DNA of 64,000 bases from positions 801,212-865,211 of the forward strand of contig NMRA01000126.1 in assembly GCA_002633005.1 (NCBI GenBank). The letters run 5' to 3'. Both the position numbers and the translations under genes were made by a program. Below the pieces are notes generated by a model. The model was not told the origin of the DNA, searched no databases, and was given only the letters and a program-made list of their open reading frames with translations. Shown in pieces: positions 33,671-64,000 of the stretch. Each line of letters starts with the position of its first letter. Within the stretch, counting starts at the first letter, position 1. Origin of the DNA: Phoronis australis. Taxonomy: Eukaryota; Animalia; Phoronida.

Positions 33671-36600
33671 ATGTTTGTTCTGGTACTATCGTTTTTATCG
33701 TTGTTTCTTCGCTGGGGGCTGACCAGTTCAGATTATAGTAAGTTAACAACGGAGCAAGTAGATGAATTAGTTGAAAAGACGCTCTCTGAAATATCCTCTG
33801 CCGTAGATGAAATGAACGCTTCCTCTGATGAGAATGGTGAAGACGACGCATCAAATCGAAAGAAAAGGGATGACGAATGTGGAAAGATCTCGTGCTGGTC
33901 TGAATGGTCTGAGTGGACTGAATGTTCGTCTGCTTGCAACAGCGGTCACCAGATCCGATCGCGGACGTGTTTACATGATCGTAGGCGAAAGAGAAGTTCG
34001 TTGGGTGTGTCCACGTGCGAAGGCGATGATCACAGTATCCGCGAGTGCCAAGGCGAAGCGGGGCACTGTGGGGCTCAACACCGGCAACACCCGCCGAGTA
34101 ATGACGAAAGGAAGAGCTCGAAGGAGGAATTGACCGATGGAAAGTTTGAGAAAATATTAAAGATTCTCGACGGGACAACTGGTAGAGATGGTTGGAAAAG
34201 TAAGTAATCTATTACAGCAGCACATTGTAAACTTCAGAGTAGTCACATAATGACCATTCCTCCAAGTGAACTACTTGTTGTGCAAATTAGAAATAAACCC
34301 TCTGAAAACTCACTGCATTATTTGTGCCGGCATTGAAGAGCCACCTGATTTTTTATGGGAATTGATGATTGTCTTTCGCTAAAATTGCGTTGCGTTGCAG
34401 GGCCACGAGTCATAACTTAAAGCTGACCTCTCCATGTCTATGTTGGGAGGTGTTCTTGGCTATCTGACACCCCACTCAAACCAAGAACTGGTTTATTGCT
34501 CTGTCTATCACCATACGTCTGCAATCGGTGACACTGAGGTGCCCAAAGACTTCGAATTTGACTGGCATTCGCACAGCGATGCTTAGATGAGTGTTATTCG
34601 AATTTTTATCGTACAGGAGCAGTTTGCATCATTGCCTACATGGTCGGTGCGGAGAAAGAACCCTTAACCATGGACGGCTCACCATATAGGGGGCTGAGGC
34701 CCCTAGCCCCCGCTTTTTCAGCTCTGCGCTGCCCATGGTCTATAGGCGGTGCACCACAGGGAGGCTAAAGCCCCCATTTTTTCAGTGCTGCGTCGCCCAT
34801 GTGAACGTGTGCTTTGAATAACTGGTTTGTGCTATCTACAGAACTTCACACCTGAAGGCTGCGCGCTACGATCAAAATTTCTGGGTATAGGTGAGACGGA
34901 ACATCACCGCGGTTAGACTCCGCCGTATCTGAGAGGTATAGTACACGGTGGAGACGGCGGATGTGAGGGAATGAACAGATAAAGTTCTTGGTTTGAGCGG
35001 GGTGTCAGTGAGGCTGTGTCGGTACCGACAGCCAAGAATTCCTTACTGTGCAGACATGGCGGTGTGCGATTTAAGTGACCTGCCTCGTGACCCAGGGCTG
35101 TTGAAATATCATAGAACTCTAGTCCGGAGTTATTTAGCAACGCACACAGCAGTGGGCGACCGTCCCAATTTTCGCGGTCATCAGTCAGTCTCAGTAGGAA
35201 CCACACGCCTCGAAAACGTTGGAAGAAATATTGCTGTTTTCAGTGATATTTCAGAAGCCTTGCGGGGTTAACTTGAAACAAAATATCTGGCAAGAGAATT
35301 TCTGTATTAAGGATTTTTTGCAACCTTCTTTTGTTCCCGTTATTTGAAGCTGTTGAGCTTTATCGATCCACACTTTTGTTGGAGTACCCCATGGTATATG
35401 TTTTCCAAAGAAAGGACAAATTTGGAATAAAATGTTTTCTTGAAAAATATTTATTATTATAAAACCGCTGGAAACACTGACAAAGTTATAATAGGGGAAA
35501 AAAAAACGTTTATTAAGCGACTGTCTGCTACAGTGTTCTCAAGTGAATTTTTCCTTAGCGAATTTATCGATGATGTCTTCAAAGTAAAATGAGTCTAATT
35601 CGTCTTTCAAGGCATTAGAGTAGTCCCCCGACCTTGATTCACCGTTCATCATAGGCAACTTTTAACTATCTTCATGGTCAATGTGTTCTATCGAAATTGG
35701 AACCCCTGTGTAAAAGAGGTATCCTAAAGTCGAAAACATACTCCCGCACCTTCAAAACAGCTAACCAGCCCGAAAAACACGAACCCCGACCTTTAAAGCA
35801 GGAAACCCCGGGATCGAACAGGAAACCTAGGAACCGAAAAACCTTACCCAGTACCTTAGTCTTGTAACCTGTAGTTTGTGGCCATACAGCATGTAGACCT
35901 ATCAATTTCCCATTATGATGAAAAATCAATCTTTCTACTTTAAATAGTTGTGACATGTTGTTTTACTATATGAGAATTTTAGACAACTTATGACTGATTG
36001 GAGTTTTACCATTCTTCTGGTGCTAAAGTTGTGGTGCGATCTTTTGACTCCGCTTTCGACGCCATGAAATATTCCATCACTTATTTGCCAGTTTTTTTCT
36101 TCTACATTTCTTCAATTTACTATTCGTCTTCCACAAGGTTGCGTACATGTCACAACAAATTATCGAAACTGGTTTCATTTCGTTTTTAGTATTTTAATAC
36201 CATTAACTAAATATTCACCGAGATTATCAACGTGTTGAGAGTATGTTGAAATTCACCCACAGACAAATTACGCCAGTTTTACGGATAAAAATCAAATCAC
36301 AATGGAGTCAAGTTGAAATCGGTGCAACGTTTCAGCAAACATCATTGGTTAGGAAGCCGACCTGAGAGTTCAAATCAGTGCGTGAACACGGACACATTGA
36401 CGGGTGAAAAAAGGCAACTTTGGCCGAAAACATGCCTGGAATGCAACATCATTCCTGGATTCTTAATACTCGTGACGAGTGTACTGAACAACGTATCGTT
36501 AATGTTGGTTTGGCTCTTACTCAGTTTTAACCGGTTGTACCAAACTTTCTTAGAAATTAATGATAGAGCCATCTTAGTATGAAATGCACCTTCGATAATA

Positions 36601-39600: not shown

Positions 39601-42600
39601 AAAATTATCTCAATTCAAAGCAAACACAAATGGAAGTGGCTCAACTGAACATCGGACCACCTCGAAGAAAACGTAAATTGATATTACCACATTTTCTGCA
39701 TTGGGTCACATAGGCATTTTTATGCACCCATATACATATGTCGGTGCATGTTACCGTCATCTCTGTCCGGGCGTCTAGCGTCCAGCAAACATTGCTGTAC
39801 TCCTAAACAGCTTGCTAGATATTTTTGTAATTTGTTTTCTTATGGAGCTGGTGACGATTATGACGATTCTCGGACGACTTCAACTATTGTTGTACCTTCA
39901 AGTGGCAAATGTAGTCATTACGTTTGACTCTGTGTCTGCCCACTAGCCATTGACGCATTTTTACGAAATTCCGTAAATAAGTTTCATTTGAGATTACGAC
40001 GACACCCTCCCGATATGGAAATGATTCGGCGGAGCCTGCACCCCATAGTGCATGGCTATATTTATTACTTTCTAGTCCATTTTCGGCGTCCGCCTCTCTT
40101 GCCGACGATGCCTTTCCATTTTCGGACAGCTTCTACCTATTCTGCGCCACGTACTGACCATTTTAACCACCTACATTTATTTTTGTGATCGTAAATTGTC
40201 CGCCGTCTGGCATCCACTGCTGTATCTCCAACCCCCCTCGGAGGATGTTCATGAAAGCTAGCAGATGCGTTCTTATGGATATACTGACAAATGGCACCGC
40301 CGCCTTGGCGACAATTTTAGTATTTTGCTTTTTATTTTGCCTCTGTATCTTCGGAGTCCCTTTACAGATTTTATGAAATAGGTATCCATTAAAGACCCTA
40401 CGTAACGGGGACGTCTTAACGTATTTGGACGGATTCTATCAATTCTGCCTACAATCTAGTGGCCATTTTGTTACTTACGAGGGCCTACAACTTTTTTCGA
40501 GCATATCCAACTACATGTAAATTTGTGTATTCTAGTAGCAATTTTGTTTTTTACATTTGCTTCTGTACCTTTGAAGTTCCTGAAAGTATTTTCATGAAAT
40601 TAAAAAAGCGGGTTTCTGTTACGAGAAGATGACGCCTTCTCATTTTAATCGTCGTTTACGTACTCTTCGCCACCGAATGACCATTTTTTATGGGATTAAT
40701 AAACACTCCGAGAATCATCGTTTGCGGTGCAGTCGCATTAGTTTTATAATTTTATGTAATCTGTATCTAGTATTGAAGTGGCTTTGAATTCACATAAAAT
40801 TGTTTACCCTAAGACATCAAGTGTTAAACGAGATGGTAAGGTCACGACCTGTCACCACACTGAAAGAAATACAACTGTATATTCCTTTGAAATTGTAGGT
40901 GACATTTTCAAGGACTTCTTAGAACACGAAAATAAGACTCGAAAGCCCCGTAAGCATACCTTGATACAAATAGTTTCTCGATCCGTATTATCGCTTTAAC
41001 GATAACCGAATAGATGTCATGGACACCTCACTTATTAACACTATTCACCGCACACCTAATACTCATGGCTATGCTATCTTCTGCGGGTTGATCAGGGGCC
41101 CGTTTCATGAAACCCGACTCAAGACTTGAGAAAAAAATATCTAAGGAAAAATCATAAAAAACCAATTCATGAACATGAAATCGGATTTTGGTCTTCAATC
41201 ATGATAACTTAGACAAAAATTAAGTCACTTTTGACATAGGTGGACATACAAACTACGCTTTTGCCACCTATACTGCATTGCGAATTTCGAAAACTAATCA
41301 AGGAGGTGTGTGAATTACGGTTTCAAGAATAGTCTTGGTCTTAAAACTCTAAATGGTGATTTATTTACATTTTGGATACAATTGGGGTGTCGTTCGCTGG
41401 AGAACACTTCGGTATGTCTGACAGAAAAAGTTCCATGAAATGGGCCCAGAACCATAAATTGCTGTTTCACCACAATTTTATTCAATTGCTATTCATGCTT
41501 AAAGCTGTTACAAATCCGCCTTCTGTTAAAAAATCGATGCAGGCCAACTACCGATGATTTTTTATTACTTAAATTAGAGATGATTTCTGAAGTTGGAAGA
41601 ATTGTCTAATGATCAAGAACAGACTCAGCAACACGGATGTTTAGTGATGACATGATTTGGACGCGCCAATAGGAAATGTATAGCCGTATCACATTCAAGA
41701 AACACCAGGGGCAATTTTGCACTTGAAACCTTTACAAAAATAATGCGTTTGGATTAACATCGGTGCGCCGTTACCGGTACATCCATTGTATGCTTCCGGG
41801 GAACGATTTACCAGATCCATAGCCCGGTAATAAATTCTCACTAACGTATATCACTACGTAAATGTCGCCTAAATATTATTACTATTTTTAATTTGGGCTT
41901 TTAATTTCGTTTGACTGTGTAATACTAAATAATCGAATTATGCACCAGACATGGTCTCTTGCGCTGATGAATTATCCGTTAAAACTAAGCCTGGCAGTCA
42001 CATCTAATATGAATAAGTCTCAAGCGGCCTGCATAAAAGGTAATTTTTGGCAGAAGACAGATTTCCTTGCCACACAATGTGTTGATGGAGGCTTTGAGCG
42101 CTCTCCATTCGCATTCTACGAAGACAATGCTGCAATTAGCTCATAGTCCAGTCATTCTACGGATGACCCGGAAAAAATGCAACAGAAGGTTTTATTGCAT
42201 AAATCGTATCCCCTCACACCTCTTAGTGTGAGAAAAAAGTCTACCGGAATCGGAGTGGCGGAAGTTGGTTTTTCAAAATGGCGGACAAAATGGCTGCTAG
42301 CATTGCAGATGACCATTATTACTCGAGAGTGGCATCTGATAGAGTAAAAATTCAAAAAGGTTTACCTTTCTTTCAAGGGTCAACAAATCCATTGGAAATA
42401 GTTTAGCATGGTTGTGGTGAAACCGTCCACCTTTTTCCAAGATGGCCTCCAAAAGTACTTCGAGTGGCACAACTTTGCACGAACACATTAGTGTGTCGTC
42501 TTGCTTCAAACATTGCATCATAGGTTTTCAGGGTCGACTAATCCATTGAGACTCATTGCATATGACTGTAATGGTTACTTCCACCATTTCCAAGATGGCG

Positions 42601-45600
42601 GACAAAATGGCCGCCAGATTTGCAGATGAACATTATAACTCGAGAATGAAATTTGATAGAATAAAAATTTAAAAAGGTCATCCAAATTTCCAGAGCCAGA
42701 CATAGACACAACTCTTTCCAGCTTCAAATATGTCTTGCTTCAGCTGCATGGGTCTAATGAATACTCTAGCGTTTTCGCAGAATTCTCGATCATGCAGTTT
42801 CTTGAATGGGAGAGCCTTTGCTTGCGCAAATGGCAAAATTGCACAAGTTTCGTCTCCAAGAGACAACTGTAGTTTCTTGATGTCCCAGACTCTCCTCTTG
42901 CTTTGGTGCCTCTCGTCAAATTTCATGAACATTGGAAGTTGTTGTGAAACAGCATGGTAACACAAAAGAACCAACAACTCTGTGTCGTCTGCAATAAGGG
43001 TAGTTGGACCTTGTGCTGCGTTCTCTACTGCTGTTTCTATAATTAAAACGTCTGCGTCACCTTGAGCTTGTACCACTGTGCTACCAGCATTTCCTAGCAA
43101 ACTTGACAAGAAATGAATGAATCATTGTTTGTTTTTGCTGTTTGCCAAAAAATGTTCTGACATTGGCTTGATCATCATGTCACCATTGCAGTGAACTTCA
43201 CTTCCAAGCACCTCACCCAAAATTCGAACATGGGAAACATCTTTTGTTGATGATTCATCTCAGTAACCATCAAAAACAACAGTAGGCTGGGTGCACTTGC
43301 TGATGTAATCCACATAAGCTCTGCCAAACGACTGAAACGTTGCCTTTTGCACCTCTAGGCCATGGGATACTGTGAAGGAGAGAACAGCCGTCGATTACAT
43401 GCATCACCGTATTTTCTGGAAACTGAAACCCTCAGGTAGTCCCCCACTGGACCAGATTACATCAGCTAATATTGATTTAGTAGAGACTCTGGGAAGACCA
43501 GATGTTTCAAAAAGAGCAGGGGCACCAACACACAGCTCAAACTTGAAAAGGCTTCATGAACTTTCACTGTTATCTTTTGCAGATATCAGGATTCGCTGAA
43601 GTAGCAGTCGTGGATCCACTTATGTAAAATCACTATTAGCAACATGAACTGATTGACTTGTCATTACCACAACCTTGTCTTCCTTTCTGAATGTGAAGTC
43701 TTTCACGCTTGACCCCTCCATAGACAAGCGAATCGTCATCCCCACTTCTCTGCCATTCTCGGCATTGACGCGCGTGCGTGCAGTCACACCAGTGACGGCG
43801 CCCTGTAATGTTTCTTTTTAAAATGGGTTTCTGTTGTGGAGGAATTCAACAAGGCTGCGGATGTCTTTGTTGTCACTCGACTGTCTTGCCAGGGTACATT
43901 CTTTATGCTGCTGACATGTTTCACAACTCAAGTTTGTCACGGTCTGCATGGCACCATTTATACTTGAGCATACCGGCAAGGAAAGCAGCCACGGTGCACT
44001 CTGCGTATCTCCCATTTCGCAACCTCTAGTTAAAGCTCCTGGTGCTTTAATACTTTTCATGAACGTTTGTTAAATTACAAGATCATATGACAAGCCTGTC
44101 CAAAATCTGTCACTTTGTCTTATGACATCTGGACGGGTGTCTTTGAGTTGCTGCGTCTGCTCCAAGTATATGTATGCAGATTATGCATAAGAGTTGTGAC
44201 CAGCAGCTGCAAAGTAAGGCAGCATTTCAGAAACTGCTTTTAGGTGAACCTCCCAATCTGGCCGCGTTATTTGTGCTTTTAAAAAAATCGAAGGATGTCA
44301 GTCATCTTCATATACTGAAGCCAAAGACTAATAATTCAACTTTGCAAGGACAAGTCTAATTTATGTGCTTCGATTTTTATGGATACCTACAAGACACTCC
44401 GACGAGCATACATCGTCGCACACAGACGTCATGCCAGCAATAAGATCATTATACCGCTTCAGACCACCTCTCAGATCATCATCAAGTATATCATTGACCA
44501 TTGATTCTTCTGACGAACTATTCTCTGTCACTGCGAATTCTGAAGACCTATACTCTGATTCAGTCGTGTTTGAATATACCAGTGGCAGTAGGTCGGAAGC
44601 CAGAAGTGAACTCTCGTGAGGGTATTCCATTGTAATTCAAGGTTCAGAATCGGAAGACACTGGCTGTGCATTGCATGCCCCAGCGTATACATCTAGTTTT
44701 GTAATCAGTTGGGATGTCTGAAGAATCTGTCTCCATATTCTAACGAGCCAAAATTAGTGTTCAAGCATTGAAATGCCCCCCCGCTTGGCACGGAATCTGT
44801 GTGTTCTGCGTTGGTGACATTCGGGACTCTTGGGATTTCTGAAGAACCGGAACTTCTTTCATTAGTGGTTCTGGATTGACGTTACTTGATCTGTCAATAT
44901 TTGGAAGTGGGACATAAGGATCACACTGTTTCATGCATGCACCATCTCGAGAACTTTTTGAAGCTCTGTGCCTGACATTACATATCCAATACATCCCAGA
45001 AAGCTCATCTCAGTATGAAATCTGCCAAGCCTGGCGAAGAACAAGTGACTGCAGATTACTGTCGTTTTGTTTGCTGGCACTAATTTCTTCTAAAATCAGT
45101 TACCTATGTTCATAAAAAGCATGCATATTAAACAAATTGAGAGTACTAAATGTTAAAATTTAATTATTAACTTTGTTACACAATTTTATTTGCTTTTCAT
45201 CAAATTCAGATGAAATCAACAGCCAAATTCTCAACACATGCCAGCAGCAGACGAAATCATTGCTTGGGAACATCTAATAATATCTCCAATAGCAGATAAA
45301 AAAAGCCACTTTCTGCCCAATTTTATTCAGGGTTTGTGTAATGAATAAGCCAATAACTCCACCAGAATTTCATATTTTTCTGAGAATTATTATTTTTGAT
45401 ACCTCAAATGAATATATTTTACAGAAAAATAATTGAATGTGTGAAGTTTATTATGAAAATTTAACAAAAGCCTTTTCTGAAAAACACAACAAATTTTATG
45501 TTATGCAATCTAAAATGAGATTAAAATTTCACATTTAGTATCTAAATATGAAAAACAAATTATAGATACAATCCACTCATTAACCCTGACTGTAGATTGT

Positions 45601-46999
45601 AAAATGTTTTTGTGTAAATGCCTATCAGGTTACGGAACGTAAATGCTTTAAATTGGGGTTTTGTGAATTGGCGGCCATTTTAGCGGCCATTTTGTCAGCC
45701 ATCTTGATTTTTTTATCTCCAACCAGTGACCAATTGCAAGGTCCATATATTTTCAATTATCTACCTCACAAAAGAATAAAAATTTTGCCATTTTCAGAAC
45801 AAAATGTAAAACGAAATCTTTCAAAATGTACCAAATTGCCGTTTCGGCCGCCATATTGTCAGCCATATTGGTTTTCTTTCACGGAAAATTGGCATCTTTG
45901 GATTGGTATGCCTGTTACGGACAGTATAAAATTAATGACAAATTTCCAGCTGTTACATATGAGTAACATGCCAGAAAGCAGTAAACACCGGTTTAGACTT
46001 TTTTATGGCACCAAGGGATGTTTGAAGATGCCATTTGTGCAAAAAACCTTCTGTTGCAATTTTTTCTAGGTTGGGCCCTCTGGAGTCCTAGAATGACTGG
46101 ACTATTAGGTGATACTTGCGTCACAAAACGTCCTGTTGGCTCTTTTTAAAAGCTGACTGTGAGTTTACGCCCTGGTCCATTTGGTCTGTGTGCTCTAATA
46201 CGTGCAAAGGCGGTATGAAGATGCGGAAAAGAGCTTGTTTGGACAAACAAGGTGTTGTATGCGGGTCGAGCAAATGTAAGGGACTAAGAGAACAGTGGTC
46301 CAGTTGTCCTGAGGAGAACGACTGTCATGATGTTGGGTCAGCTGGCCGCCGTAACCTTCTTCAGGCGCGTTCCCTGATGGCAGGTAAAAGTAATCCTAAC
46401 TTAATGGTACAGAGCAGACTGCTGCAGCCGCATGCACGCGGCGTCAATTGGTAGGGTTCTTAGGTCACTGCCACTGATTAAATGTGCTAACTAGGTACTG
46501 CAAACTGAAAGATTGACATGACCAAAGAGTTTCCTGAAATAACTAGAAATTCAAGTATGTCCTGCTACAAACTTGCTTTCTCATTTGTGGAATTCCTTCA
46601 TTCCGAAAATGCCCGAATGTGGCAAAGTTAACGTCACTATGAAGTAAATCAAAAAATGTCCTTGCGAAATTCACCATACATAACGACTTATGGGTGTGAA
46701 TAGTGGTATCAGAAATTTTTACCAACCGATCTAAAACGGTGGACACTTTTTGTTTTTTCAGCACACCAAACTGTTGAGGTCCAGTGTTATGTCTTATATC
46801 ACTTCTTTCAGATACTGGGAATACACAGCCAAATACCCCGAAGTCAGTCAATAGCTTCATTTTAATTCCTACGATTGCAATCATTTTTGGAATACTCACA
46901 TCCACGTTAGTTGCCATGACGATAGTTTGTAAATACGCCATGAACCGACGGCGTTATCGTCACTCCGTCGACCGTTCTCATCGACTAGTACTAAATTAG
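33671..46999 (+). CDS. Predicted type I membrane protein with signal peptide, three thrombospondin type-1 (TSR) repeats and a C-terminal TM; internal exons partly uncertain
   Basis: Supported exons: 33671-34199 (signal peptide MFVLVLSFLSLFLRWGLTSS; WSEWSEWTECSSACNSG..RSRTC), 36640-36888 (WSSWSQCSDTCGEG..RKKAC), 38106-38237, 39544-39672, 46153-46383 (WSIWSVCSNTCKGG..RKRAC), 46812-46999 (TM FILIPTIAIIFGILTSTLVAMTIVC, then basic tail); all have phase-1 junctions. Candidate exons at 34401-34890 and 39341-39484 do not reconcile in phase. Confidence 0.7.
34669..34801. mobile_element. Dimeric CATGGGCG-ended mini-MITE (inverted copy of 29956-30098)
   Basis: catggacggc...cgcccatg with internal catggtctatag junction; flanks ttaac / tgaac. 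Confidence 0.65.
37565..37835 (+). repeat. Interspersed repeat, copy of 25548-25835
   Basis: Colinear similarity, including the hairpin agaccgtccggagt...actcgggacggtct. Confidence 0.8.
41096..41447. mobile_element. PIF/Harbinger-like MITE
   Basis: TIR gggcccgtttcatg / catgaaatgggccc, CAG at or overlapping both boundaries. Confidence 0.6.
42144..46104 (-). mobile_element. Decayed Academ-type (XPG-domain) DNA transposon in an intron of the TSR gene
   Basis: TIR tagtccagtcattcta / tagaatgactggacta (TAG...CTA termini), extending inward as tgcaacagaaggtttt / aaaaccttctgttgca; flanks tca / tta. Fragmented - strand ORFs include 42678-43109 'QAQGDADVLIIETAV...LIADDTELLVLLCYH', an XPG/PIN-like acidic motif. 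Confidence 0.75.
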
Positions 47000-49900: not shown

Positions 49901-50808
49901 AAAAAAGTAGAAAACGAGACAATATTCTACTAGACGACAGGAAGTACCAAAATTTAGCGTCTGCAATTCATAGCTCTGAACATACCCAATGAATCTTATA
50001 GTAAAAGATAGACATTCCAAAAAATTCCAGCCCCCCATTTTTTAGGGTTGGTGCTCTCAAACAAAGTCAGGGAAAATCTCTTTTGAAAGCCAACATTTTT
50101 GCACAGTTCGCCAGAAGTACCCAAGTTCCAGCGACCAGGTAGGCCTAAGGGTAGCCTTGATGCAAAGCTGTATAGGCCTACTAACAAGCTGTAGTTAGTC
50201 TTCATACTGGTCACGGGTAGCTGGCACTGAGGCTAGCTAATGGCTGCCGCGGCAGTGTGACACAGGACTAACCAGCCCGTAATTTTATGCAAGTGTCTGA
50301 AACTACCTCTGAATGTATACGACATTTGAACATTTTACTTCGACAAAAGAGCTTGCAACCGCATGCCTTTACCGTTCGCCAGTGTCTGGTCTCGATCCGC
50401 ACCGGGTCCGATAGGTTGCGGTCCCTTGTACGGCAAAATAATTTCTGTCAAAATTTATTCGCCACATTTTTTCAGCAAATTCGATAAAATTGTCCGTATT
50501 TTGGTTTTATTAAAATTAAGGCGCGTTGTCGATTATTTTATCCCCATTTGCAGGCTGGTAACAGGCACTCGTCCATTCACACTGACGGCGTTTTTAACCT
50601 GAGTCCTGAATGAATTGTACTTCCGGGTTCGCGGTAAGTTCAAAATGGCGGTGGTTCTTCGGGTACGAATCGTGAGTGGCGCGTTCAATTAAACTTTTTT
50701 CGAGTACGGACTGTGTATTAGTTATGGGGTAAGTACTTCTTGGATCCTTATAACAACCTCTAACCATGTAATAAGGGTTAACAACGTGTGAGACCAGGAC
50801 TTTAAGGT

Positions 50809-50814
50809 TTTATT
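50809..50814 (-). terminator. Candidate polyadenylation signal (AATAAA) of the amidase array gene
   Basis: tttatt on + strand, ~150 nt downstream of the TAA at 50963. Confidence 0.5.
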
Positions 50815-50962
50815 CGAATTCATGAATGGCTTACAAATATTCGGATTGGCAATTTTTCTGTTATTCTACGATAAACTTGATTTGAAAGCCAAAAATTTGA
50901 TTTTTTGGCTAAGAGGTCTCAAATAACCACGTGAGACCCCGTAGTCACAGATCTACAAGCAG

Positions 50963-52559
50963 TTATGTCGAAATTTCAAACAAGCAGAACTCTTTACACT
51001 TGACGAAGTAACACTTGTTTCTACATTTCTTGCCGTCCCACAAGTCGATATGTCCTGTGGGATGCTTGGGGTTATTCTTCCAGGTGCAGTGACGGAATGT
51101 AATGATTCCTTTCTTTCCCTGAAATATAATGACAATCGTCAAGTCGTTTGAATACTTAACTGTAGTAGTCAACAGACTGATGTATAATGTATGGAATTTT
51201 TCGGTAACGTTTTAAGTATAGATTGGAATATCAAATCACCGGTGTTGTAATTAAAAAGATTAACCATCATTGTACAGTGACAGGCCCGTAGCCAGCATTG
51301 CGCGGAGAGTGATTCGAATTTCTAAAACGGTGGACCTTTTGATCATATTTTGTGAACGTCGGCCGCTTTTTCCGTAGCGCCCTTAGACAGAAAAATCCGG
51401 CATCAAGCGCTTTGATTCACAACCAAATTTGAAATTAGTAGCAAGTTGGTTATTATTGTAGTTAGTAGTACCAACAATAACTAGTACAATTTTGTTGATA
51501 TTGATGTTCAACTATATTCTATGCTATTCTGCTGGGGTTGGACCTTTTCCGCGGGGGGTCGATCGAACTCCCCAACCTCCCGTGGCTACGGTCCTATATG
51601 TACGTTATTCGGGAGAAAATAAAACCAAAAAGCGCGACAAGCTAGTCAGTGTACGAAAAACTAATATATTACACGTTTGAACATGGTGTAACAGACGTTT
51701 GACAGTGAAATCCTTCTTTACTTTTAAATTCATGAAGTTGCGTGAATTTAGTAAGCACCCGGATATTGCTCTGCAGCCGGCGGAAGTGGCGAATGAAAAT
51801 GTCATGGAACCGATGTAATATTGTTTGCAACTTCAGCAAAAGAACATTTCTACAGCATTTTGATGGCGTGTTATATGTCAATAACTTACCGCTAATTTTG
51901 ATTCCTTCTTGACACACAACGGCTTTTTGAAAATCTTCGTCAGGTAGCAATGCCACGTGTCCGCTCTGATGACGTATTTTTGACTTTGTTTGTTCTTAAA
52001 GCCAGACCAGTTACAATTATCAGATTCCTTGATGCATATCTTGTAGCCTGTTCGAAGATGCAGGGCAGGAAGAACGGTATGAGTAAGGTTCAAATCGTGT
52101 GCAAAATTGTAAATTCATTTGGTACCTTTTTGGTTTTCCGAAATTCAGTTAAATTATGATGACTAGATGGACGAACATAAAATCTGTGTTCTGATGTTTC
52201 AAAAAATTAAACATTAACTTAAACCAAACAAAAGAGGAATAAATACTTATCACGTGGATCATGAGATTACATAATCTTGATAACATTGGGCATAATTATG
52301 TGACTTGATGCTTGACTAGTGGAGGTGGCAATTTTTTGTGAAATTGATGAACATGGAAAAACAGAGAAGAGCCAAGGTGAGATTAAGCCTTGCGTTAACT
52401 TCGGAAGGTCGTACTTACCTAATTGATATAATGTGTAACTCAATCTCATGCCGCATGTATCACCATAATTTTTATCAAATCCCGCCTTTTTCCACATTGC
52501 AGATTTATCGAACGTTTTTGGGTCAGGATACTTAGTCCACAAATCGTTGAACGTGAAAC
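50963..52559 (-). CDS. dae4: Tae4-like amidase domain, C-terminal unit (no linker, true stop)
   Basis: Exons 52559-52419, 52047-51890, 51118-50963: GFTFNDLWTKYPDPKTFDKSAMWKKAGFDKNYGDTCGMRLSYTLYQL|GYKICIKESDNCNWSGFKNKQSQKYVIRADTWHCYLTKIFKKPLCVKKESKLA|GKKGIITFRHCTWKNNPKHPTGHIDLWDGKKCRNKCYFVKCKEFCLFEIST*. Confidence 0.88.
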
Positions 52560-55500
52560 CTGCAAAATCACAGAAATAACAAATACAGCGTTCACGTGGC
52601 GTCCGATCAAAAGGCGGGTCAGCCGCGGTACAAAAAGGTTACCCGCACCATTAAAACGACAATACACCCCCTAGTGCCATAAAGTATTTTATGTTGGATC
52701 ACGTGACGCTGTAAATTAGCTCTCAAACAAAGAAACAAATGACAGTTCATTGAAATGATACAAAAAGTGGTTTGAAGATTTCAACCAATCCTCGTTCTGT
52801 CACCTGCTAATGCATCATTACCGGTAATCTCGAAAGATACAAGCGGGAATCAACTATTAATTCACACTTCCAATCTCACAACTTGCACGTTACGTCATTG
52901 GTGGGTGGCCTTTTCCCACAGTTGCCGCCTAACTCGCTAAAATGAAAGTCACTTTTGCCCATTTAGAAGTTTTTAAATTTCCTAGCAAACATTTGATGAA
53001 GATTGAGGTCTGCTGAGCATTAGCTTGCTTCAGAGAACTGGATGGAGAAGTCGTTTTTAGTAGCTGTTAAAGGGCCAGAACCTGGTTTGGCATCTTTTCA
53101 ATAGTTGAGATCTTACGCCGTGATCGATCTACGCTATGCAGCTTGATTTCACGTAATAACAAACCGCTAGTTTTTCATAAGCCCAGGAATTCAGTCGCCC
53201 GACTAACAAACAAGCTAAGTCCAGATTTGTAGCGGTATCGTCATCAATTCGGAATTAGTTTTTTACTACAGCGACTGTGTGGAGGGCTTAATCGACAGAG
53301 TCTGTGCACTGTGTCAAAATATCTACAAAAACTGTAAAGCTTTTTATATAACTGAGAAAAATTATGCTTTTTCTGACAGTAGAAAGACTGTAAAATTTAT
53401 TTGCGTCTCCACCTTTTGGCATCAATACCGCAACCAAGTTTTGTTTGATACATTTGTTCAAGATGAAATCTCAAACATGATGTCACAGTTTTCTTCTTAA
53501 TTATCATTTCATTTTTGTTTACTGAAATGTTTGATTTTTCCATGATAAACATAAAATTCTTCATAAGCGCTACACTTACACAGTGGTAGGCCAGCGAGAC
53601 GAGCTAGTTCAAAGTGAAACAAGAGCATGAATGAGAATATAAAGTCAAATATTATGACAATGAATAATCATACAATACAGACTATTATCTACTGTGTAAA
53701 GGTTATGACAAAGTGTGACAGATGCAGGCCGATGCTGCATCCATTCACCCTTATATTTTGTAAATTCCAGTCACAAAAGTTTATCATTCAAAAAGCAAAT
53801 ACCAAAATTACTTTTGAGAACAGTGCATGTATCTCAAAGTTCCACTTGAATTGGATTACCCATATCTGAGATATGTTTCAAAACTCGCCAAGAAATGTGA
53901 AATTTTCCTTGGGTTCTGTCTAACCTTAATTTAAGTAGCGCTGAAATAGATGGTGGTGTATTTCATACATTAGAATTCGTTTTAAGAGTTCTTGATCAAC
54001 AAGATCGTGGTTTAAAAGACAAAAACAAAGTCTTCCAAAATTTGTTGAAAAAATTCCCATCATGGTCAATTTTAAGAAAACCATCACACGCTACTCAAAA
54101 AATCAGATCTTACCTGCAATCTTCTTCGTTTCATTACATGACGGAGATGGTGTAGTAGAACCATGGATGGGCGAACTAGAGGAGGATTCGGTAAATCGAG
54201 TACTTCCCGATGGTGTGATATCTGTTGCTGGCGAAGCGTTTTTTGCCGTGGTGTAATTAGTTGGGAAAGTGGTGGCAGTTGATGCTGGGGTTCTAGTTGG
54301 GGATCTGGTGGTAGTCGGGGTAGTGATGGTAGTCGGGGGTCTGGTGGTAGTCGGCGAGGTGGTGGTAGACAGGGGTGTGGTGGTCGTTGGGGATGTGGTG
54401 GCATTCGGGGAAGTGTTTGTAGTCGAAATTTCAAATAAGCAGAACTCTTTACACTTGACGAAGTAACACTTGTTTCTACATTTCTTGCCGTCCCACAAGT
54501 CGATATGTCCTGTAGGATGCTTGGGGTTATTCTTCCAGGTGCAGTGCCGGAATGTTATGATTCCTTTCTTTCCCTGAAATATATTGCCAATCGTCATGTG
54601 GTTTGAATACTTAACTGGGGTTGTCAACAGACTGTTGTATAATGTATGGAATTTTTCGGTAACGTTTTAAGTATAGATTGGAATATCAAATCACCGGTCT
54701 TGTAATTAAAGACATGAACAATCATGGTACCATGTCGAAGTTTTTCGGTAGAAAATGAAAACCTTAAACGTGACAAACTGAACAGTGTACGAAAAACAAA
54801 TATCTTACACGTTGAAACACGGTGTATCAGACGTTTGGCACTGAAATCCTTCTTAATTGGGTCTAACTTTTACATTCAATTAGTTGCGTGAAATTAGTAG
54901 GCGGTCATATATTGTTTTGCATCCGGCGGAAACCGCCGATGAAAATGTCATGGAAGCGATGTAATATTGTTTGCAATTTCAGCAAAAAGAAATTTCTTCT
55001 GCATTCTGACTCTGAGACCAACTTACCGCTAGATCTGATTCCTGCTTTACACACAACGGCTTTTTGAAAATCTTCGTCAGGTAGCAATGCCATGTGTCCG
55101 CCCTGATGACGTATTTTTGACCTTGTTTGTTCTTAAAGCCCGACCAGTCACAGTTATCAGATTTCTTGATGCATATCTTGTAGCCTGTTCGAAGATATAG
55201 GGCAGGAAGAACGACATAAACAAGTTTCAAATCGTGTGCAAATTTGTAAATTGACTTGATAGTTCTTGTTTTCCGAAAACCATATTTGAAATTTAAATAG
55301 TATTTTACGCGTCTTGATGCCCGACAGCTTCAGGAGAACTGTCCAGGAGGCCAAATTTTGTCAATTTCTTGCCAATGAAAATACAATGGGAAGTGTCATA
55401 TTAAGATAAGTCCTGAGTTAACTTCGGAAGCTCGTACTTACCTAATTGATATAATGTGTAACTAAATCTCAGGCCGCATGTATCACCATAACTTTTATCA

Positions 55501-58500
55501 AATCCCGCCTTTTTCCACATTGCAGGCTTGTCAAATATGTTTGGGTCCGGGTACTTTGTCCACAAATCATTGAAAGTAAAATCTGCAAAGTCATAGAAAT
55601 AACAAATACAGCGTTCTCGTGGTGTCCGATTGAAAGAGTTGTCCGCCGTCTTTTTTGACTTGACTTTTTATAAACATTTCACATCTGACTGCGTCATAAA
55701 ATTTTTATCTGTACCATTAAAGCGAATATAAACACCCTAGTTGACGCAAAAATAACTTGGGTTAGATCAATTTCCGCTGTAAATTAGGTCTCAAACAAAG
55801 AAAGAACTGACAGTAGGCTACCTTAGTAAGGTACAAAAGCCTGTTTGGACGATTTCAACCAATCCTTGCTCTGTCACCTGCTTATGCATCTTTGGCGTCA
55901 ATTTCGAAAGATAAGGGCAAGAATCAACTAAAAATTCATATTCCAATATCGCAATATGGATATGACGGTCACTGGTGAGTGATCTTTTCCGACAGTTGCC
56001 GCATGATTCGCTAAAACGTAGGTTACGCTTGTTCATTTAGCAGTTTTTAAATTTCCCTGCAAACCTTTAAAGATTATGGATGGTTGCAGAGCATTATTTT
56101 GTTTCAAAGAACTGGATGGGAACGTCGTTTTTAGTACCTGTTAAAGAGCCTGAACCGGGTTTGGAAGCCTGTTCATTGTTGAGATAATGTGCCGTGATCG
56201 AGTTACGCTATCAAGGTTGATTTCGCGTAATAATGAAGTGCTAGTCTTTAACAATCCCGGGAATTCATCCGCTCTACTAATGAACAAGCTAAGTCTAGAG
56301 TTGTAGCGGTAATATCGGAAATCAGAGTTAGGTTTTTTACCGAAGGCGGCTTGATGTAGGACTTAATCGACAGAGTCTGTAAATTCAACTAAATTTCTGG
56401 ATACATGTAACTATAAAGTTTAACTGAGTAAAAGTATGCATTTTCTGAAATAAAATCCTATAAAATTTGTTTTGAGTCTTTCTATTAATCAGCCGTCTAT
56501 TGGAACACGTCACTTTGTCTTTTTAGTAAAGAAAGACACATTCTGTGAAAAACAACTGCATCAATATCGTAGCCAAGTTTTTGTTGATACAAGTATTCAA
56601 TACGAAATCTAAACAATTATGTCAGAGTGTTCTTAATTATCATTTCGCTTTCGTTTCCTAAAATGTTTACTTTTTTCATCATAGCCGTGAAAATTATTTA
56701 TATGCGCTGCACAAATGCAGGCCGATGCTGCATCCATCCACCTTCTATATTTGATAAACACTGGTACCAAATTTGATCATTGCAAAAGCAAACACCAAAA
56801 GTGCTTTTGAGAACAGTGCATTAGTATAGTATCTGAAAATTTGACCTCAACCTGGATAGCTTTTCCGAGAATTGTTTTAACGTTCGCCCTGAAATATGGA
56901 TTTTTTTCTGGAATCCTATGTAACCTTAGTATATGGACAGTAGATGATGTACAGAAATGTTCGATTTTTCATTCTTCAAAATTCGTTTTCGGAATTCTAG
57001 ATGCACAAGATTCTGGTCTAAAAGGCAAAAGTAACGTTTTACAACATTTGTAAAAAATAGTCAGGATGGCCAATTTTAAGAGAACCATCACACTCTTTTC
57101 AGACAATCAGATCTTACCTGCAATCTTCTTCGTTTCATTACATGACGGAGATGGTGTAGTAGAACCATGGATGGGCGAACTAGAGGAGGATTCGGTAAAT
57201 CGAGTACTTCCCGATGGTGTGATATCTGTTGCTGGCGAAGCGTTTTTTGCCGTGGTGTAATTAGTTGGGAAAGTGGTGGCAGTTGATGCTGGGGTTCTAG
57301 TTGGGGATCTGGTGGTAGTCGGGGTAGTGATGGTAGTCGGGGGTCTGGTGGTAGTCGGCGAGGTGGTGGTAGACAGGGGTGTGGTGGTCGTTGGGGATGT
57401 GGTGGCATTCGGGGAAGTGTTTGTAGTCGAAATTTCAAATAAGCAGAACTCTTTACACTTGACGAAGTAACACTTGTTTCTACATTTCTTGCCGTCCCAC
57501 AAGTCGATATGTCCTGTAGGATGCTTGGGGTTATTCTTCCAGGTGCAGTGCCGGAATGTTATGATTCCTTTCTTTCCCTGAAATATATTGCCAATCGTCA
57601 TGTGGTTTGAATACTTAACTGGGGTTGTCAACAGACTGTTGTATAATGTATGGAATTTTTCGGTAACGTTTTAAGTATAGATTGGAATATCAAATCACCG
57701 GTCTTGTAATTAAACACATGAACAATCATGGTACCATGTCGAAGTTTTTCGGTAGAAAATGAAAACCTTAAACGTGACAAACTGGACAGTGTACGAAAAA
57801 CAAATATCTTACACGTTGAAACACGGTGTATCAGACGTTTGGCACTGAAATCCTTCTTAATTGGGTCTAACTTTTACATTCAATTAGTTGCGTGAAATTA
57901 GTGGGCGGCCATATATTGTTTTGCATCCAGCGGAAACCGCCGATGAAAATGTCATGGAAGCGATGTAATATTGTTTGCAATTTCAGCAAAAAGAAATTTC
58001 TTCTGCATTCTGACTCGGAGACCAACTTACCGCTAGATCTGATTCCTGCTTTACACACAGCGGCTTTTTGAAAATCTTCGTCAGGTAGCAATGCCACGTG
58101 TCCGCCCTGATGACGTATTTTTGACCTTGTTTGTTCTTAAAGCCCGACCAGTCACAGTTATCAGATTTCTTGATGCATATCTTGTAGCCTGTTCGAAGAT
58201 AGAGGGCAGGAAGAACGACATATACAAGTTTCAAATCGTGTGCAAATTTGTAAATTGACTTGATAGTTCTTGTTTTCGGAAAACCATATTTGAAATTTAA
58301 ATAGTATTTTACGCGTCTTGATGCCCGACAGCTTCAGGAGAACTGTCCAGGAGGCCAATTTTTGTCAATTTCTTGCCAATGAAAATACAATGAGAAGTGT
58401 CATATTAAGATAAGTCCTGAGTTAACATCGGAAGCTCGTACTTACCTAATTGATATAATGTGTAACTAAATCTCAGGCCGCATGTATCACCATAACTTTT

Positions 58501-61500
58501 ATCAAATCCCGCCTTTTTCCACATTGCAGGCTTGTCAAATATGTTTGGGTCCGGGTACTTTGTCCACAAATCATTGAACGTAAAATCTGCAAAGTCATAG
58601 AAATATCAAATACAGCGTTCTCGTGGTGTCCGATTGAAAGAGGGATCCGCCGTCTTTTTTGACTTGACTTTTTATAAACATTTCACATCTGACTGCGTCA
58701 TAAAATTTTTATCTGTGCCATTAAAGCGAATATAAACACCCTAGTTGACGCAAAAAGAACGTGGGTTAGATCAACTTCCGCTGTAAATTAGGTCTCAAAC
58801 AAAGAAAGGACTGACAGTAGGCTACCTTAGTAAGGTACAAAAGCCTGTTTGGACGATTTCAACCAATCCTTGCTCTGTAACCTGCTTATGCATCTTTGGC
58901 GTCAATTTTGAAAGATAAGGGCAAGAATCAACTAAAAATTCATATTCCAATATCGCAATATGGATATGACAGTCACTGGTGAGTGATCTTTTCCGACAGT
59001 TGCCGCTGGAATCGCTAAAACGTAGGTTACGCTTGTTCATTTAGCAGTTTTTAAATTTCCCTGCAAACCTTTGAAGATTATGGATGGTTGTAGAGCATTA
59101 TTTTGTTTCAAAGAACTGGATGGGAACATCGTTTTTAGTACCTGTTAAAGAGCCTGAACCGGGTTTGGAAGCCTGTTCATTGTTGAGATAATGTGCCGTG
59201 ATCGAGTTACGCTATCAAGGTTGATTTCGCGTAATAATGAAGTGCTAGTCTTTAACAATCCCGGGAATTCATCCGCTCTACTAATGAACAAGTTATGTCT
59301 AGAGTTGTAGCGGTAATGTCAGAAATCAGAGTTAGTTTTTTTACCGAAGGCGGCTTGATGTAGGACTGAATCGACAGAGTCTGTAAATTCAACTAAATTT
59401 CTAGATACATGTAACTATAAAGTTTAACTGAGTAAAAGTATGCATTTTCTGAAATAAAATCCTGTAAAACTTGTTTTGAGTCTTTCTATTAATCAGACGT
59501 CTATTGGAACACGTCACTTTGTCTTTTTAGTAAAGAAAGACACATTCTGTGAAAAACAACTGCATCAATATCGTAGCCAAGTTTTGGTTGATACAAGTAT
59601 TCAATACGAAATCTAAACAATTACGTCAGAGTGTTCTTAATTATCATTTCGCTTTCGTTTCCTATAATGTTTACTCCTTTCATCATAGCCATGAAAATTA
59701 TTTATATGCGCTGCACCGAGTCACTGGAAGGGCTGCGAGACGAACTCCCGAAGCTAATTAACAGTGAAACAACAACATGGATTAGATTATAAAGTCTTAT
59801 ATTATGACAATGACTGATCATTTATTAGAGAGTAAAATCTACTGTGCAAAGGTGTGTGACAATGTGCCACAAATGCTGTCCGATGCTGCATCCATCCACC
59901 TTCTGTATTTGATAAACACTGGTACCAAATTTGATCATTGCAAAAGCAAAGACCAAGAGTGCTTTTGAGAACAGTGCATTAGTATAGTATCTGAAAATTT
60001 GACCTCAACCTGGATAGCTTTTCCGAGAATTGTTTTAACGTTCGCCCTGAAATATGGATTTTTTCTGGAATCCTATGTAACCTTAGTATATGGACAGTAG
60101 ATGATGTACAGAAATGTTCGATTTTTCATTCTTCAAAATTCGTTTTCGGAATTCTAGATGCACAAGATTCTGGTCTAAAAGGCAAAAGTAACGCTTTACA
60201 ACATTTGTAAAAAATAGTCAGGATGGCCAATTTTAAGAGAACCGTCACACTCTTTTCAGACAATCAGATCTTACCTGCAATCTTCTTCGTTTCATTACAT
60301 GACGGAGATGGTGTAGTAGAACCATGGATGGGCGAACTAGAGGAGGATTCGGTAAATCGAGTACTTCCCGATGGTGTGATATCTGTTGCTGGCGAAGCGT
60401 TTTTTGCCGTGGTGTAATTAGTTGGGAAAGTGGTGGCAGTTGATGCTGGGGTTCTAGTTGGGGATCTGGTGGTAGTCGGGGTAGTGATGGTAGTCGGGGG
60501 TCTGGTGGTAGTCGGCGAGGTGGTGGTAGACAGGGGTGTGGTGGTCGTTGGGGATGTGGTGGCATTCGGGGAAGTGTTTGTAGTCGAAATTTCAAATAAG
60601 CAGAACTCTTTACACTTGACGAAGTAACACTTGTTTCTACATTTCTTGCCGTCCCACAAGTCGATATGTCCTGTAGGATGCTTGGGGTTATTCTTCCAGG
60701 TGCAGTGCCGGAATGTTATGATTCCTTTCTTTCCCTGAAATATATTGCCAATCGTCATGTGGTTTGATTACTTAACTGGGGTTGTCAACAGACTGTTGTA
60801 TAATGTATGGAATTTTTCGGTAACGTTTTAAGTATAGATTGGAATATCAAATCACCGGTCTTGTAATTAAAGACATGAACAATCATGGTACCATGTCGAA
60901 GTTTTTCGGTAGAAAATGAAAACCTTAAACGTGACAAACTGAACAGTGTACAAAAAAAAAAATATCCTACACGTTGAAACACGGTGTATCAGACGTTTGG
61001 CACTGAAATCCTTCTTAATTGGGTCTAACTTTTACATTCAATTAGTTGCGTGAAATTAGTGGGCGGATATATTTTTTTTTGCATCCGGCGGAAACCGCTG
61101 ATGAAAATGTCATGGAAGCGATGTAATATTGTTTGCAATTTCAGCAAAAAGAAATTTCTTCTGCATTCTGACTCCGAGACCAACTTACCGCTAGATCTGA
61201 TTCTTGCTTTACACACAACGGCTTCTTGAAAATCTTCGTCAGGTAGCAATGCCACGTGTCCGCCCTGATGACGTATTTTTGACCTTGTTTGTTCTTAAAG
61301 CNNNNNNNNNNNNNNNNNNNNNNNNNNNNNNNNNNNNNNNNNNNNNNNNNNNNNNNNNNNNNNNNNNNNNNNNNNNNNNNNNNNNNNNNNNNNNNNNNNN
61401 NNNNNNNNNNNNNNNNNNNNNNNNNNNNNNNNNNNNNNNNNNNNNNNNNNNNNNNNNNNNNNNNNNNNNNNNNNNNNNNNNNNNNNNNNNNNNNNNNNNN

Positions 61501-63905
61501 NNNNNNNNNNNNNNNNNNNNNNNNNNNNNNNNNNNNNNNNNNNNNNNNNNNNNNNNNNNNNNNNNNNNNNNNNNNNNNNNNNNNNNNNNNNNNNNNNNNN
61601 NNNNNNNNNNNNNNNNNNNNNNNNNNNNNNNNNNNNNNNNNNNNNNNNNNNNNNNNNNNNNNNNNNNNNNNNNNNNNNNNNNNNNNNNNNNNNNNNNNNN
61701 NNNNNNNNNNNNNNNNNNNNNNNNNNNNNNNNNNNNNNNNNNNNNNNNNNNNNNNNNNNNNNNNNNNNNNNNNNNNNNNNNNNNNNNNNNNNNNNNNNNN
61801 NNNNNNNNNNNNNNNNNNNNNNNNNNNNNNNNNNNNNNNNNNNNNNNNNNNNNNNNNNNNNNNNNNNNNNNNNNNNNNNNNNNNNNNNNNNNNNNNNNNN
61901 NNNNNNNNNNNNNNNNNNNNNNNNNNNNNNNNNNNNNNNNNNNNNNNNNNNNNNNNNNNNNNNNNNNNNNNNNNNNNNNNNNNNNNNNNNNNNNNNNNNN
62001 NNNNNNNNNNNNNNNNNNNNNNNNNNNNNNNNNNNNNNNNNNNNNNNNNNNNNNNNNNNNNNNNNNNNNGCGTCAATTTCGAAAGATAAGGGCAAGAATC
62101 AACTAAAAATTCATATTCCAATATCGCAATATGGATATGACGGTCGCTGGTGAGTGATCTTTTCCGACAGTTGCCGCATGATTCGCTAAAACGTAGGTTA
62201 CGCTTGTTCATTTAGCAGTTTTTAAATTTCCCTGCAAACCTTTGAAGATTATGGATGATTGTAGAGCATTATTTTGTTTCAAAGAACTGGATGGGAACGT
62301 CGTTTTTAGTACCTGTTTAAGAGCCTGAACCGGGTTTGGAAGCCTGTTCATTGTTGAGATAATGTGCCGTGATCGAGTTACGCTATCAAGGTTGATTTCG
62401 CGTAATAATGAAGTGCTAGTCTTTAACAATCCCGGGAATTCATCCGCTCTACTAATGAACAAGCTAAGTCTAGAGTTGTAGCGTTAATATCAGAAATCAG
62501 AGTTAGTTTTTTTACCGAAGGCGGCTTGACGTAGGACTTAATCGACAGAGTCTGTAAATTCAACTAAATTTCTAGATACATGTAACTATAAAGTTTAACT
62601 GAGTAAAAGTATGCATTTTCTGAAATAAAATCCTATAAAATTTGTTTTGAGTCTTTCTATTAATCAGCCGTCTATTGGAACAAGTCACTTTGTCTTTTTA
62701 GTAAAGAAAGACACATTCTGTGAAAAACAACTGCATCAATATCGTAGCCAAGTTTTGGTTGATACAAGTATTCAATACGAAATCTAAACAATTATGTCAG
62801 AGTGTTCTTAATTATCATTTCGCTTTCGTTTCCTAAAATGTTTACTTTTTTCATCATAACCATGAAAAGTATTTATATGCGCTGCACCGAGTTACTGGAA
62901 GGGCTGCGAGACGAACTCCCGAAGCTAATTAACAGTGAAACAACAACATGGATTAGAATATAAAGTCTTATAATATGACAATAACTGATCATATATTAGA
63001 GAGTAAAATCTACTGTGCAAGGGTGTGTGACAATGTGCCACAAATGCAGGCCGATGCTGCATCCATCCACCTTCTATATTTGATAAACACTGGTACCAAA
63101 TTTGATCATTGCAAAAGCAAACACCAAAAGTGCTTTTGGGAACAGTGCATTAGTATAGTATCTGAAAATTTGACCTCAACCTGGATAGCTTTTCCGAGAA
63201 TTGTTTTAACGTTCGCCCTGAAATGTGGATTTTTTCTGGAATCCTATGTAACCTTAGTATATGGACAGTAGATGATGTACAGAAATGTTCAATTTTTCAT
63301 TCTTCAAAATTCGTTTTCGGAATTCTAGATGCACAAGATTCTGGTCTAAAAGGCAAAAGTAACGTTTTACAACATTTGTAAAAAATAGTCAGGATGGCCA
63401 ATTTTAAGAGAACCATCACACTCTTTTCAGACAATCAGATCTTACCTGCAATCTTCTTCGTTTCATTACATGACGGAGATGGTTTAGTAGAACCATGGAT
63501 GGGCGAACTAGAGGAGGATTCGGTAAATCGAGTACTTCCCGATGGTGTGATATCTGTTGCTGGCGAAGCGTTTTTTGCCGTGGTGTAATTAGTTGGGAAA
63601 GTGGTGGCAGTTGATGCTGGGGTTCTAGTTGGGGATCTGGTGGTAGTCGGGGTAGTGATGGTAGTCGGGGGTCTGGTGGTAGTCGGCGAGGTGGTGGTAG
63701 ACAGGGGTGTGGTGGTCGTTGGGGATGTGGTGGCATTCGGGGAAGTGTTTGTAGTCGAAATTTCAAATAAGCAGAACTCTTTACACTTGACGAAGTAACA
63801 CTTGTTTCTACATTTCTTGCCGTCCCACAAGTCGATATGTCCTGTAGGATGCTTGGGGTTATTCTTCCAGGTGCAGTGCCGGAATGTTATGATTCCTTTC
63901 TTTCC
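50963..63905 (-). CDS. dae4: Multi-domain Tae4-like (domesticated amidase effector, Dae4-type) peptidoglycan amidase with Thr/Pro/Ser-rich linkers; 5' end outside the window
   Basis: Repeating exons A (141 nt, phase 1-1), B (158 nt, phase 1-0), C (460 nt, phase 0-1; 156 nt with stop in the last unit) join in frame across all units. Catalytic Cys motif DTCG[ML]R[LF]SY and His motif GKKGII..GHIDLWDG..CxxxC correspond to Tae4 NACPIRMSY and GKKGII..GHVTLWNG..CSDQC. Confidence 0.85.
51281..51596. mobile_element. MITE inserted only in the terminal amidase unit intron
   Basis: TIR caggcccgtagcca / tggctacggtccta; absent from the paralogous introns at ~54730, ~57735 and ~60890. Confidence 0.7.
54114..55582 (-). 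CDS. dae4: Tae4-like amidase domain + mucin-like linker, unit 2
   Basis: Exons 55582-55442, 55184-55027, 54573-54114, all AG/GT with gtaag donors, open in frame. Confidence 0.88.
57118..58586 (-). CDS. dae4: Tae4-like amidase domain + mucin-like linker, unit 3
   Basis: Exons 58586-58446, 58188-58031, 57577-57118; near-identical to unit 2 at +3004 bp. Confidence 0.88.
60275..61301 (-). CDS. dae4: Tae4-like amidase domain + linker, unit 4 (exon A and start of exon B fall in the assembly gap)
   Basis: Exon C 60734-60275; exon B visible from 61301 to its donor at 61189. Confidence 0.8.
61302..62069. other. Assembly gap (N run) within the tandem array
   Basis: 768 Ns; the flanks correspond to positions ~760 bp apart in intact units. 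Confidence 0.98.
63446..63905 (-). CDS. dae4: Tae4-like amidase unit 5, exon C + linker (exons A and B beyond the window)
   Basis: Same acceptor, donor and 460-nt length as the other internal units; one visible linker change (GSTK versus GSTT). Confidence 0.82.
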
Positions 63906-64000
63906 CTGAAATATATTGCCAATCGTCATGTGGTTTGAATACTTAACTGGGGTTGTCAACAGACTGTTGTATAATGTATGGAATTTTTCGGTAACGTTTT

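Follow-up and report, generated by a model that had tools for sequence, protein, structure and literature searches.

Tandem Tae4-family domains joined by mucin-like linkers in a spliced gene of the phoronid Phoronis australis

A stretch of 64,000 nucleotides from the phoronid Phoronis australis (assembly GCA_002633005.1, contig NMRA01000126.1, forward-strand positions 801,212 to 865,211; "the window" denotes this whole stretch, within which all positions below are numbered) raises the question of whether an animal can carry several copies of a bacterial toxin-type domain on one protein chain, and of what such a chain would do. On its minus strand, from 64000 to 50963, lie five tandem three-exon units spaced at 3.0–3.5 kb, whose predicted products belong to Tae4, one of the families of bacterial type VI secretion system (T6SS) amidases whose capture by animals was reportedly described by Chou et al. 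in 2015. The favored answer, held with a probability of roughly 0.6, is a single secreted chain in which five to seven basic Tae4 heads would cut exposed bacterial walls while O-glycosylated linkers would hold the protein in mucus.

An initial annotation of this DNA had proposed at least five three-exon units; five are present, but only three are complete (58586–57118, 55582–54114 and 52559–50963), unit 2 falling partly in an assembly gap and unit 1 being represented by its exon C. The features are listed below, with nvDae4 denoting the Tae4-family enzyme of Nematostella vectensis (LOC5507694).

Beyond the window end at 64000: unit 1 exons A and B
63446–63905, minus strand: unit 1 exon C (C-half of the domain plus linker), 459 of 460 nt the same as in the other internal C exons
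61302–62069: assembly gap of 768 N, where exon A of unit 2 and the first part of its exon B are expected
61189–61301, minus strand: unit 2 exon B, 3' part
60275–60734, minus strand: unit 2 exon C
58446–58586, minus strand: unit 3 exon A, with the catalytic Cys codon at 58482–58480
58031–58188, minus strand: unit 3 exon B
57118–57577, minus strand: unit 3 exon C
55442–55582, minus strand: unit 4 exon A, with the catalytic Cys35 codon at 55478–55476 (alignment with Cys63 of nvDae4; RNA joints)
55027–55184, minus strand: unit 4 exon B (RNA joints)
54421–54573, minus strand: unit 4 exon C, domain part, with the His122 codon at 54507–54505, Asp124 and Cys131/Cys135 (Pfam PF14113; Tae4 chains of the Protein Data Bank, PDB)
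54114–54420, minus strand: unit 4 exon C, linker of 102 residues ending in a phase-1 donor (RNA depth 54–74 in two runs)
52560–54113, minus strand: intron of 1554 nt, GT-AG, between the linker of unit 4 and exon A of unit 5 (exact RNA joint)
52419–52559, minus strand: unit 5 (terminal) exon A, with the Cys codon at 52455–52453; 88% identity to internal A exons
51890–52047, minus strand: unit 5 exon B; 92% identity to internal B exons
50963–51118, minus strand: unit 5 exon C, coding part, with the sole stop and without a linker (stop-type read ends, 5 and 7)
50809–50814, minus strand: candidate polyadenylation signal AATAAA, about 150 nt past the stop (sequence only)

Exons A, B and C are 141, 158 and 460 nt long, with phases 1 to 1, 1 to 0 and 0 to 1, respectively; together they give an internal unit of 759 nt, or 253 codons. 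Every listed exon has an AG acceptor and a GT donor, and the exon C donor (CAG/GTAAGA) lies in phase 1, the phase of the exon A acceptor; the exon phases thus bear out the proposed match between each internal donor and the next unit. Splicing in silico from unit 2 exon C through unit 5 yields 810 codons with one stop, located after FEIST at the end of unit 5, where exon C lacks the linker. It had been anticipated that only the last unit would carry a stop followed by AATAAA, and this motif is found at 50814–50809; RNA coverage of the 3' flank around it comes from repeat-derived reads. The segment from unit 2 exon C through units 3, 4 and 5 is gap-free contiguous sequence, the introns from exon C to the next exon A differ in length (1688, 1535 and 1554 nt), and the unit spacing over the assembly gap is 3171 nt as compared with 3157 nt for the next unit.

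RNA reads bear directly on whether these units form one gene. Reads from three RNA runs of one study (X6, X7 and X8, about 18–19% of each sampled), an RNA contig set from a second study (X5) and a DNA contig set (X3) were aligned to the stretches 54050–55700 and 50500–54421; X6, X7 and X5 were used on both, so that the counts overlap. On the stretch 54050–55700, the joint between linker and exon A occurs in 24 reads of X6, 21 reads of X7 and two X5 contigs, in agreement with the earlier proposal that the units are spliced into one frame, and the A–B and B–C joints are seen in 33 and 31 reads of X6 and in 31 and 27 reads of X7, respectively, with none of the three joints present in DNA set X3. 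The 1554-nt intron leading into the terminal unit is exactly removed in 1, 8 and 2 reads of the three RNA runs, which establishes the predicted junction from 54114 to 52559. Since the terminal unit lacks a linker, a joint into it represents forward splicing and neither a circle nor back-splicing within a unit. Exon reads are nearly all first-mate-plus, as fits minus-strand RNA, and linker depth in X8 is about 20–40 times lower than in X6 and X7, so that expression differs between samples.

These joints from exon C to exon A indicate that the units are not separate genes. An arrangement of tandem genes, each stopping in the intron after its linker, would account for the donor being crossed unspliced by five reads in each of X6 and X7 and for the short hydrophobic frames starting with ATG in some spacers; it is nevertheless largely refuted and can be given hardly any credence, as spliced joints outnumber unspliced reads by about 4–5 to 1 and X7 additionally has intron reads immediately before exon A, the pattern that pre-mRNA would give. 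The two short introns show zero same-strand depth in their inner bins. As previously noted, the four spacers share no conserved signal-peptide exon; AATAAA lies within 700 nt past the linker donor in only one of the four, and no spacer-to-exon-A RNA joint or 5' exon appears among the loose ends listed.

The number of units per chain can be approached from the same reads. Read-through from domain into linker is found in 31 reads of each of X6 and X7, set against 5 and 7 stop-type ends, and this ratio corresponds to about 6 units per chain (95% range 3.8–11.5), while four single-nucleotide variants of the terminal unit give 6.6–7.5, both estimates being rough owing to 3' bias and allelic variation. 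A reduced version, in which linkage is real but the number is inflated by allele stacking around the gap, intron retention and a frameshift allele, so that most products would hold two or three domains, is quite improbable. It draws on the scaffold gap in unit 2, on internal introns whose 97–98.7% identity falls within the allelic range, and on the unspliced reads and a frameshift variant described below; it sits poorly with the gap-free sequence linking exon C of unit 2 to unit 5, the unequal C–A introns and the terminal unit's share of just 13–16% of RNA reads, as well as with the greater depth of internal-type DNA contigs (21–49, versus 6–10 for divergent types), although depth here is not a copy number.

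Several variants accompany the main sequence type. Within 54050–55700, X3 DNA contigs and three to four X6 reads show a more divergent exon type, which may belong to the first unit, not yet seen, or to a Dae4 paralog; in one DNA contig, exon C has a short tail and an apparent phase-1 donor where the long linker would stand. At the A–B junction, a synonymous variant absent from the window's units is present in four reads each of X6 and X7. Dispersed repeats at 52727–53119 and 53382–53512 (in the C–A intron) and at 50500–50890 (in the 3' flank) attract many partial RNA matches on both strands.

Comparison of the copies reveals selection on the encoded protein. Internal units share 98.7–100% identity in exons and 97.0–98.7% in introns, with exons more uniform than introns both between units 3 and 4 (p=0.018) and between units 2 and 3 (p=2e-5), and the domains of units 3 and 4 are identical in protein sequence. 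Unit 5 has diverged from the internal units (88, 92 and 97% identity in exons A, B and C, 78–86% in introns), and its comparison with unit 4 gives a dN of 0.035, a dS of 0.31 and a ratio of 0.11 (p=6e-9): the domain is under purifying selection. The array would have grown by tandem duplication of a three-exon module with phase-1 boundaries at both ends after a splice donor had come to follow the linker; unequal crossing-over or conversion may maintain its uniformity.

Each internal unit consists of a 150-residue Tae4-family domain, a 102-residue linker and one split codon; the amidase repeat of 759 nt and 253 residues postulated earlier was therefore correct in size, whereas 102 of its 253 residues are mucin-like Thr/Ser/Pro sequence and not amidase. 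The family assignment itself was upheld by profile searches. Exon C alone scores 29.9 bits against Pfam Tae4 (PF14113, cut-off 27), exons A and B searched singly against Pfam have no match, and the spliced domain reaches 83 bits, as compared with 110 for nvDae4, against a profile of six homologues from outside the animal clade. A second profile, built from the window exons and four animal-clade or close proteins, matches six solved Tae4 chains (E 1e-17 to 5e-5), and on these profile matches the domain is predicted to belong to the NlpC/P60-like Tae4 fold family. The triad residues Cys35, His122 and Asp124 (H+2) are present, with Asn at H+11 as in nvDae4, and Cys35 aligns with Cys63 of that enzyme; Cys, His and Asp(H+2) are kept in the window domain and in 24 of 24 animal-clade rows, and Arg(C+3), Ser(C+5) and the Cys131–Cys135 pair are kept in the window domain as well. 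Trp60 (24/24), Cys58 (16/24) and Cys80 (19/24) are held in common with the animal clade. In two structural reports (PMC6277958, PMC3852654), the equivalents of His122 and Asp124 form the triad type of Serratia Ssp1 and Agrobacterium Tae4, and the counterparts of Cys131 and Cys135 form a disulfide in both proteins. Cleavage of the bond between D-glutamate and meso-diaminopimelate (D-Glu-mDAP) is described as demonstrated for Ssp1 and Ssp2.

The domain is basic (isoelectric point 9.4–9.5) and contains ten Cys, which with one in the linker makes eleven per unit; this number would allow one catalytic residue and five disulfides and fits a secreted protein. Conversely, the heads might be weak or altered enzymes, with the chain acting in mucus above all to bind peptidoglycan multivalently or to trap bacteria. 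Such a role appears improbable: changes at the active-site rim, among them Asp in place of a near-invariant Asn, the long branch and the mucin-like spacers speak for it, but the retention of Cys, His, Asp(H+2), Arg(C+3), Ser(C+5) and Cys131–Cys135 and a dN/dS of 0.11 speak against it.

The linker comprises 52% Ser and Thr (67% with Pro) and carries five N-X-S/T sequons and one Cys. It also bears on whether the chain stays intact. Cleavage near a Lys-Lys pair, or by extracellular proteases, would turn the product into single amidases with a mucin tail, a dose amplifier and not a multivalent protein. A precursor of this kind, the leading alternative, is rather unlikely, even though one dibasic site stands in each linker just ahead of the next domain and is apparently kept in a variant junction of contig set X5, and though the protein-identical domains of units 3 and 4 are what selection for dosage would be expected to give. 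A wall is more readily penetrated by a small enzyme than by a large glycoprotein, which would favor release. Against cleavage, Lys-Lys is a poor convertase site, no R-X-X-R furin site occurs in the linker sequence, a linker of 102 residues would be costly if merely cut, and the linkers of comparable amphioxus proteins are acidic and lack a dibasic site.

Database searches place the domain among animal proteins. With exon C as query, an exhaustive phmmer search found 18 proteins, headed by an amphioxus protein with three matches; two of the hits, P0002 and P0003, were repetitive chance matches and were dropped. A word search with the 51-residue exon C against proteins of 91–2000 residues found none, which is weak evidence. 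A near-length search yielded 81 proteins, topped by sea anemones, hemichordates and amphioxus, and the top 25 BLAST subject rows all belong to the animal clade. Among 68 long proteins scanned (65 relatives and three cluster members), several Tae4 domains occur in three, all of the amphioxus cluster; twelve others with two profile matches each proved to hold a single domain split in two. A quick tree of 96 rows was built, with P0179 left out as too short, P0020, which has no Tae4 domain, removed from the alignment, and P0023, which lacks the catalytic Cys, kept outside the tree and the residue counts. It places the window domains inside a 26-row animal clade (SH-aLRT 97), where they group, as far as such a tree can indicate, with Dae4 proteins of cnidarians, hemichordates and amphioxus. 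The tandem domains of amphioxus fall within a group of single-domain proteins from amphioxus (SH-aLRT 99). A common origin of the two arrays survives an approximately unbiased (AU) test (p=0.118); unrelated linkers, 31–38% identity and the tree nesting together favor separate origins, and the amphioxus array probably arose independently.

Other matches extend the family. In P0004 and P0009 (Logan contigs) and in P0017, the Tae4 domain is C-terminal and accompanied by a hydrophobic leader, Pro/Ala/Gln linkers and small cysteine-rich repeats; these proteins fall outside the animal clade, look eukaryotic and may reflect another capture. Fungal Tae4 entries are also among the matches (Pecoramyces P0141, Purpureocillium P0050), and a hemichordate model, Ptychodera XP_070570416.1, has a DUF6973 domain followed by a fused Tae4 domain.

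Taken as a mechanism, the single-chain reading would run as follows. One transcript would carry all units, its Tae4-family domains spliced in frame through the 102-residue Thr/Ser/Pro linkers, and an unseen 5' exon would supply a signal peptide, as in several relatives. The basic domains would bind anionic bacterial walls and cut peptidoglycan stem peptides in the manner of nvDae4 and bacterial Tae4, while the extended, O-glycosylated linkers would keep the chain whole and retain it in mucus; several heads could then act with avidity on one insoluble wall, chiefly on exposed Gram-positive walls. A number of observations weigh against this reading. No 5' end, start codon or signal peptide is seen in the window, which ends at 64000, and the reads are 151 nt long, each spanning part of the chain only. 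The donor after the linker is crossed by the ten unspliced reads mentioned above (three start places in each of X6 and X7), and the Lys-Lys near each linker's end is a possible cleavage site. One additional base in the A6 run of the linker (54238–54244, at the same place in each linker) is found in 12 of 64 RNA reads of X6 and 4 of 54 of X7, and is absent from the window's four linkers and from the X3 and X5 contigs; this insertion would stop translation inside that linker, so that some alleles would make shorter chains. In the active site, the residue two before the catalytic Cys is Asp in all three A exons and not the Asn found in 24/24 animal-clade rows and 67/70 others (91/94 homologues), a residue described as part of the catalytic water network in Ssp1. 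Val is replaced by Ala at position 75, a short insertion precedes the His motif, and the domain sits on a long branch (1.84, in the quick tree only).

A broader proposal is that a captured toxin became a mucin-tethered, secreted chain bearing five to seven identical wall-cutting heads, with allele-variable length and a changed rim, the amphioxus tandem design being independent; this remains tentative and is rated somewhat below even odds. If true, multivalency would be a repeated step in the domestication of T6SS amidases after injection is lost. How domesticated amidases without an injection machine reach and damage bacteria is treated as open in one report (bioRxiv 10.1101/2020.04.10.036376), and a natural series of identical heads on predicted glycosylated spacers makes the multivalency answer directly testable. 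Animal Dae4 gains a divergent branch with this array, and attention is drawn to a tandem version in amphioxus that has gone unannotated.

The rest of the window carries animal-type exons (jagunal, TSP1 and HEPN), and bacterial contamination is ruled out by the spliced introns together with these neighboring genes. On the plus strand, a jagunal exon lies at 30304–30807 and several TSP1-domain exons at 33665–46454. Plus-strand exons at 50–3478 encode a HEPN domain and an HPD motif of J-domain-like type, and resemble the last part of a sacsin-like gene. At 17101–17406 on the minus strand lies a SIMPL-like exon whose weak match stays under the Pfam cut-off, and nested long inverted repeats at 12507–14220, 79–90% complementary, resemble a non-autonomous DNA transposon.

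Among known systems, nvDae4 offers the most direct comparison. It shares with the window domain the Tae4 domain (36–37% identity over 156 aligned residues), the His-x-Asp motif, a basic isoelectric point and the tree clade; it differs in being a single-domain protein of 180 residues with a secretion signal, tested activity and four Cys, whereas the window array has at least five domains, mucin-like linkers, Asp for the C-2 Asn and ten Cys per domain. Margolis et al. (bioRxiv 10.1101/2021.05.13.443009, PMC8713801) describe nvDae4 as secreted and as cleaving both Gram-negative and Gram-positive peptidoglycan, from E. coli and S. epidermidis; B. subtilis is killed by the wild type but not by the C63A mutant. 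Work on tick Dae2 (bioRxiv 10.1101/2020.04.10.036376) states that such enzymes are unable to pass an outer membrane unaided.

The initial annotation had regarded the architecture as one without known precedent, a view contradicted by three tandem Tae4 domains in Branchiostoma models (XP_035684889.1, of 657 residues, XP_078604954.1 and XP_078586281.1), which are RefSeq gene predictions named uncharacterized. As in the phoronid, the internal copies are nearly identical and a diverged last copy closes the protein; XP_035684889.1 runs from a hydrophobic leader through a cysteine-rich region and a repeat linker to its three Tae4 domains. In contrast to the window array, the Branchiostoma proteins have acidic linkers of about 25 residues without a dibasic site, acidic domains (isoelectric point 4.7–5.1) that are 31–35% identical to the window domain, and an N-terminal leader with a cysteine-rich region, a C-type lectin by the UniProt name of a related entry.

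Bacterial T6SS Tae4/Ssp1 (PF14113; PDB 4J30, 4HFK, 4BI3 and 6IJF) shares the fold family by profile, the Cys-His-Asp triad and the Cys pair, but the window gene has spliceosomal introns, animal flanking genes and no T6SS context. The bacterial arrangement of an intronless tae4 beside tai4 is not the case in this spliced animal gene, no profile search for Tai4 having been made. Insect Cht10 chitinases provide an analogy only: they too carry several catalytic domains per chain (four in AgCht10, PMC3097210) and act on an insoluble polymer, but they have an unrelated fold and substrate, are native animal genes and possess separate chitin-binding domains. Literature searches at the level of listings and abstract openings found no paper on multi-domain or tandem Dae4, PMC9113151 and PMC13514124 proving unrelated to it, and Chou et al. 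2015 may already list such proteins. The Tae4 domain family, its capture by animals, hydrolases with multiple catalytic domains and the tandem layout in public gene models are already known; what is new is an RNA-supported array of five or more near-identical domains with long mucin-like linkers, on a divergent Dae4 branch.

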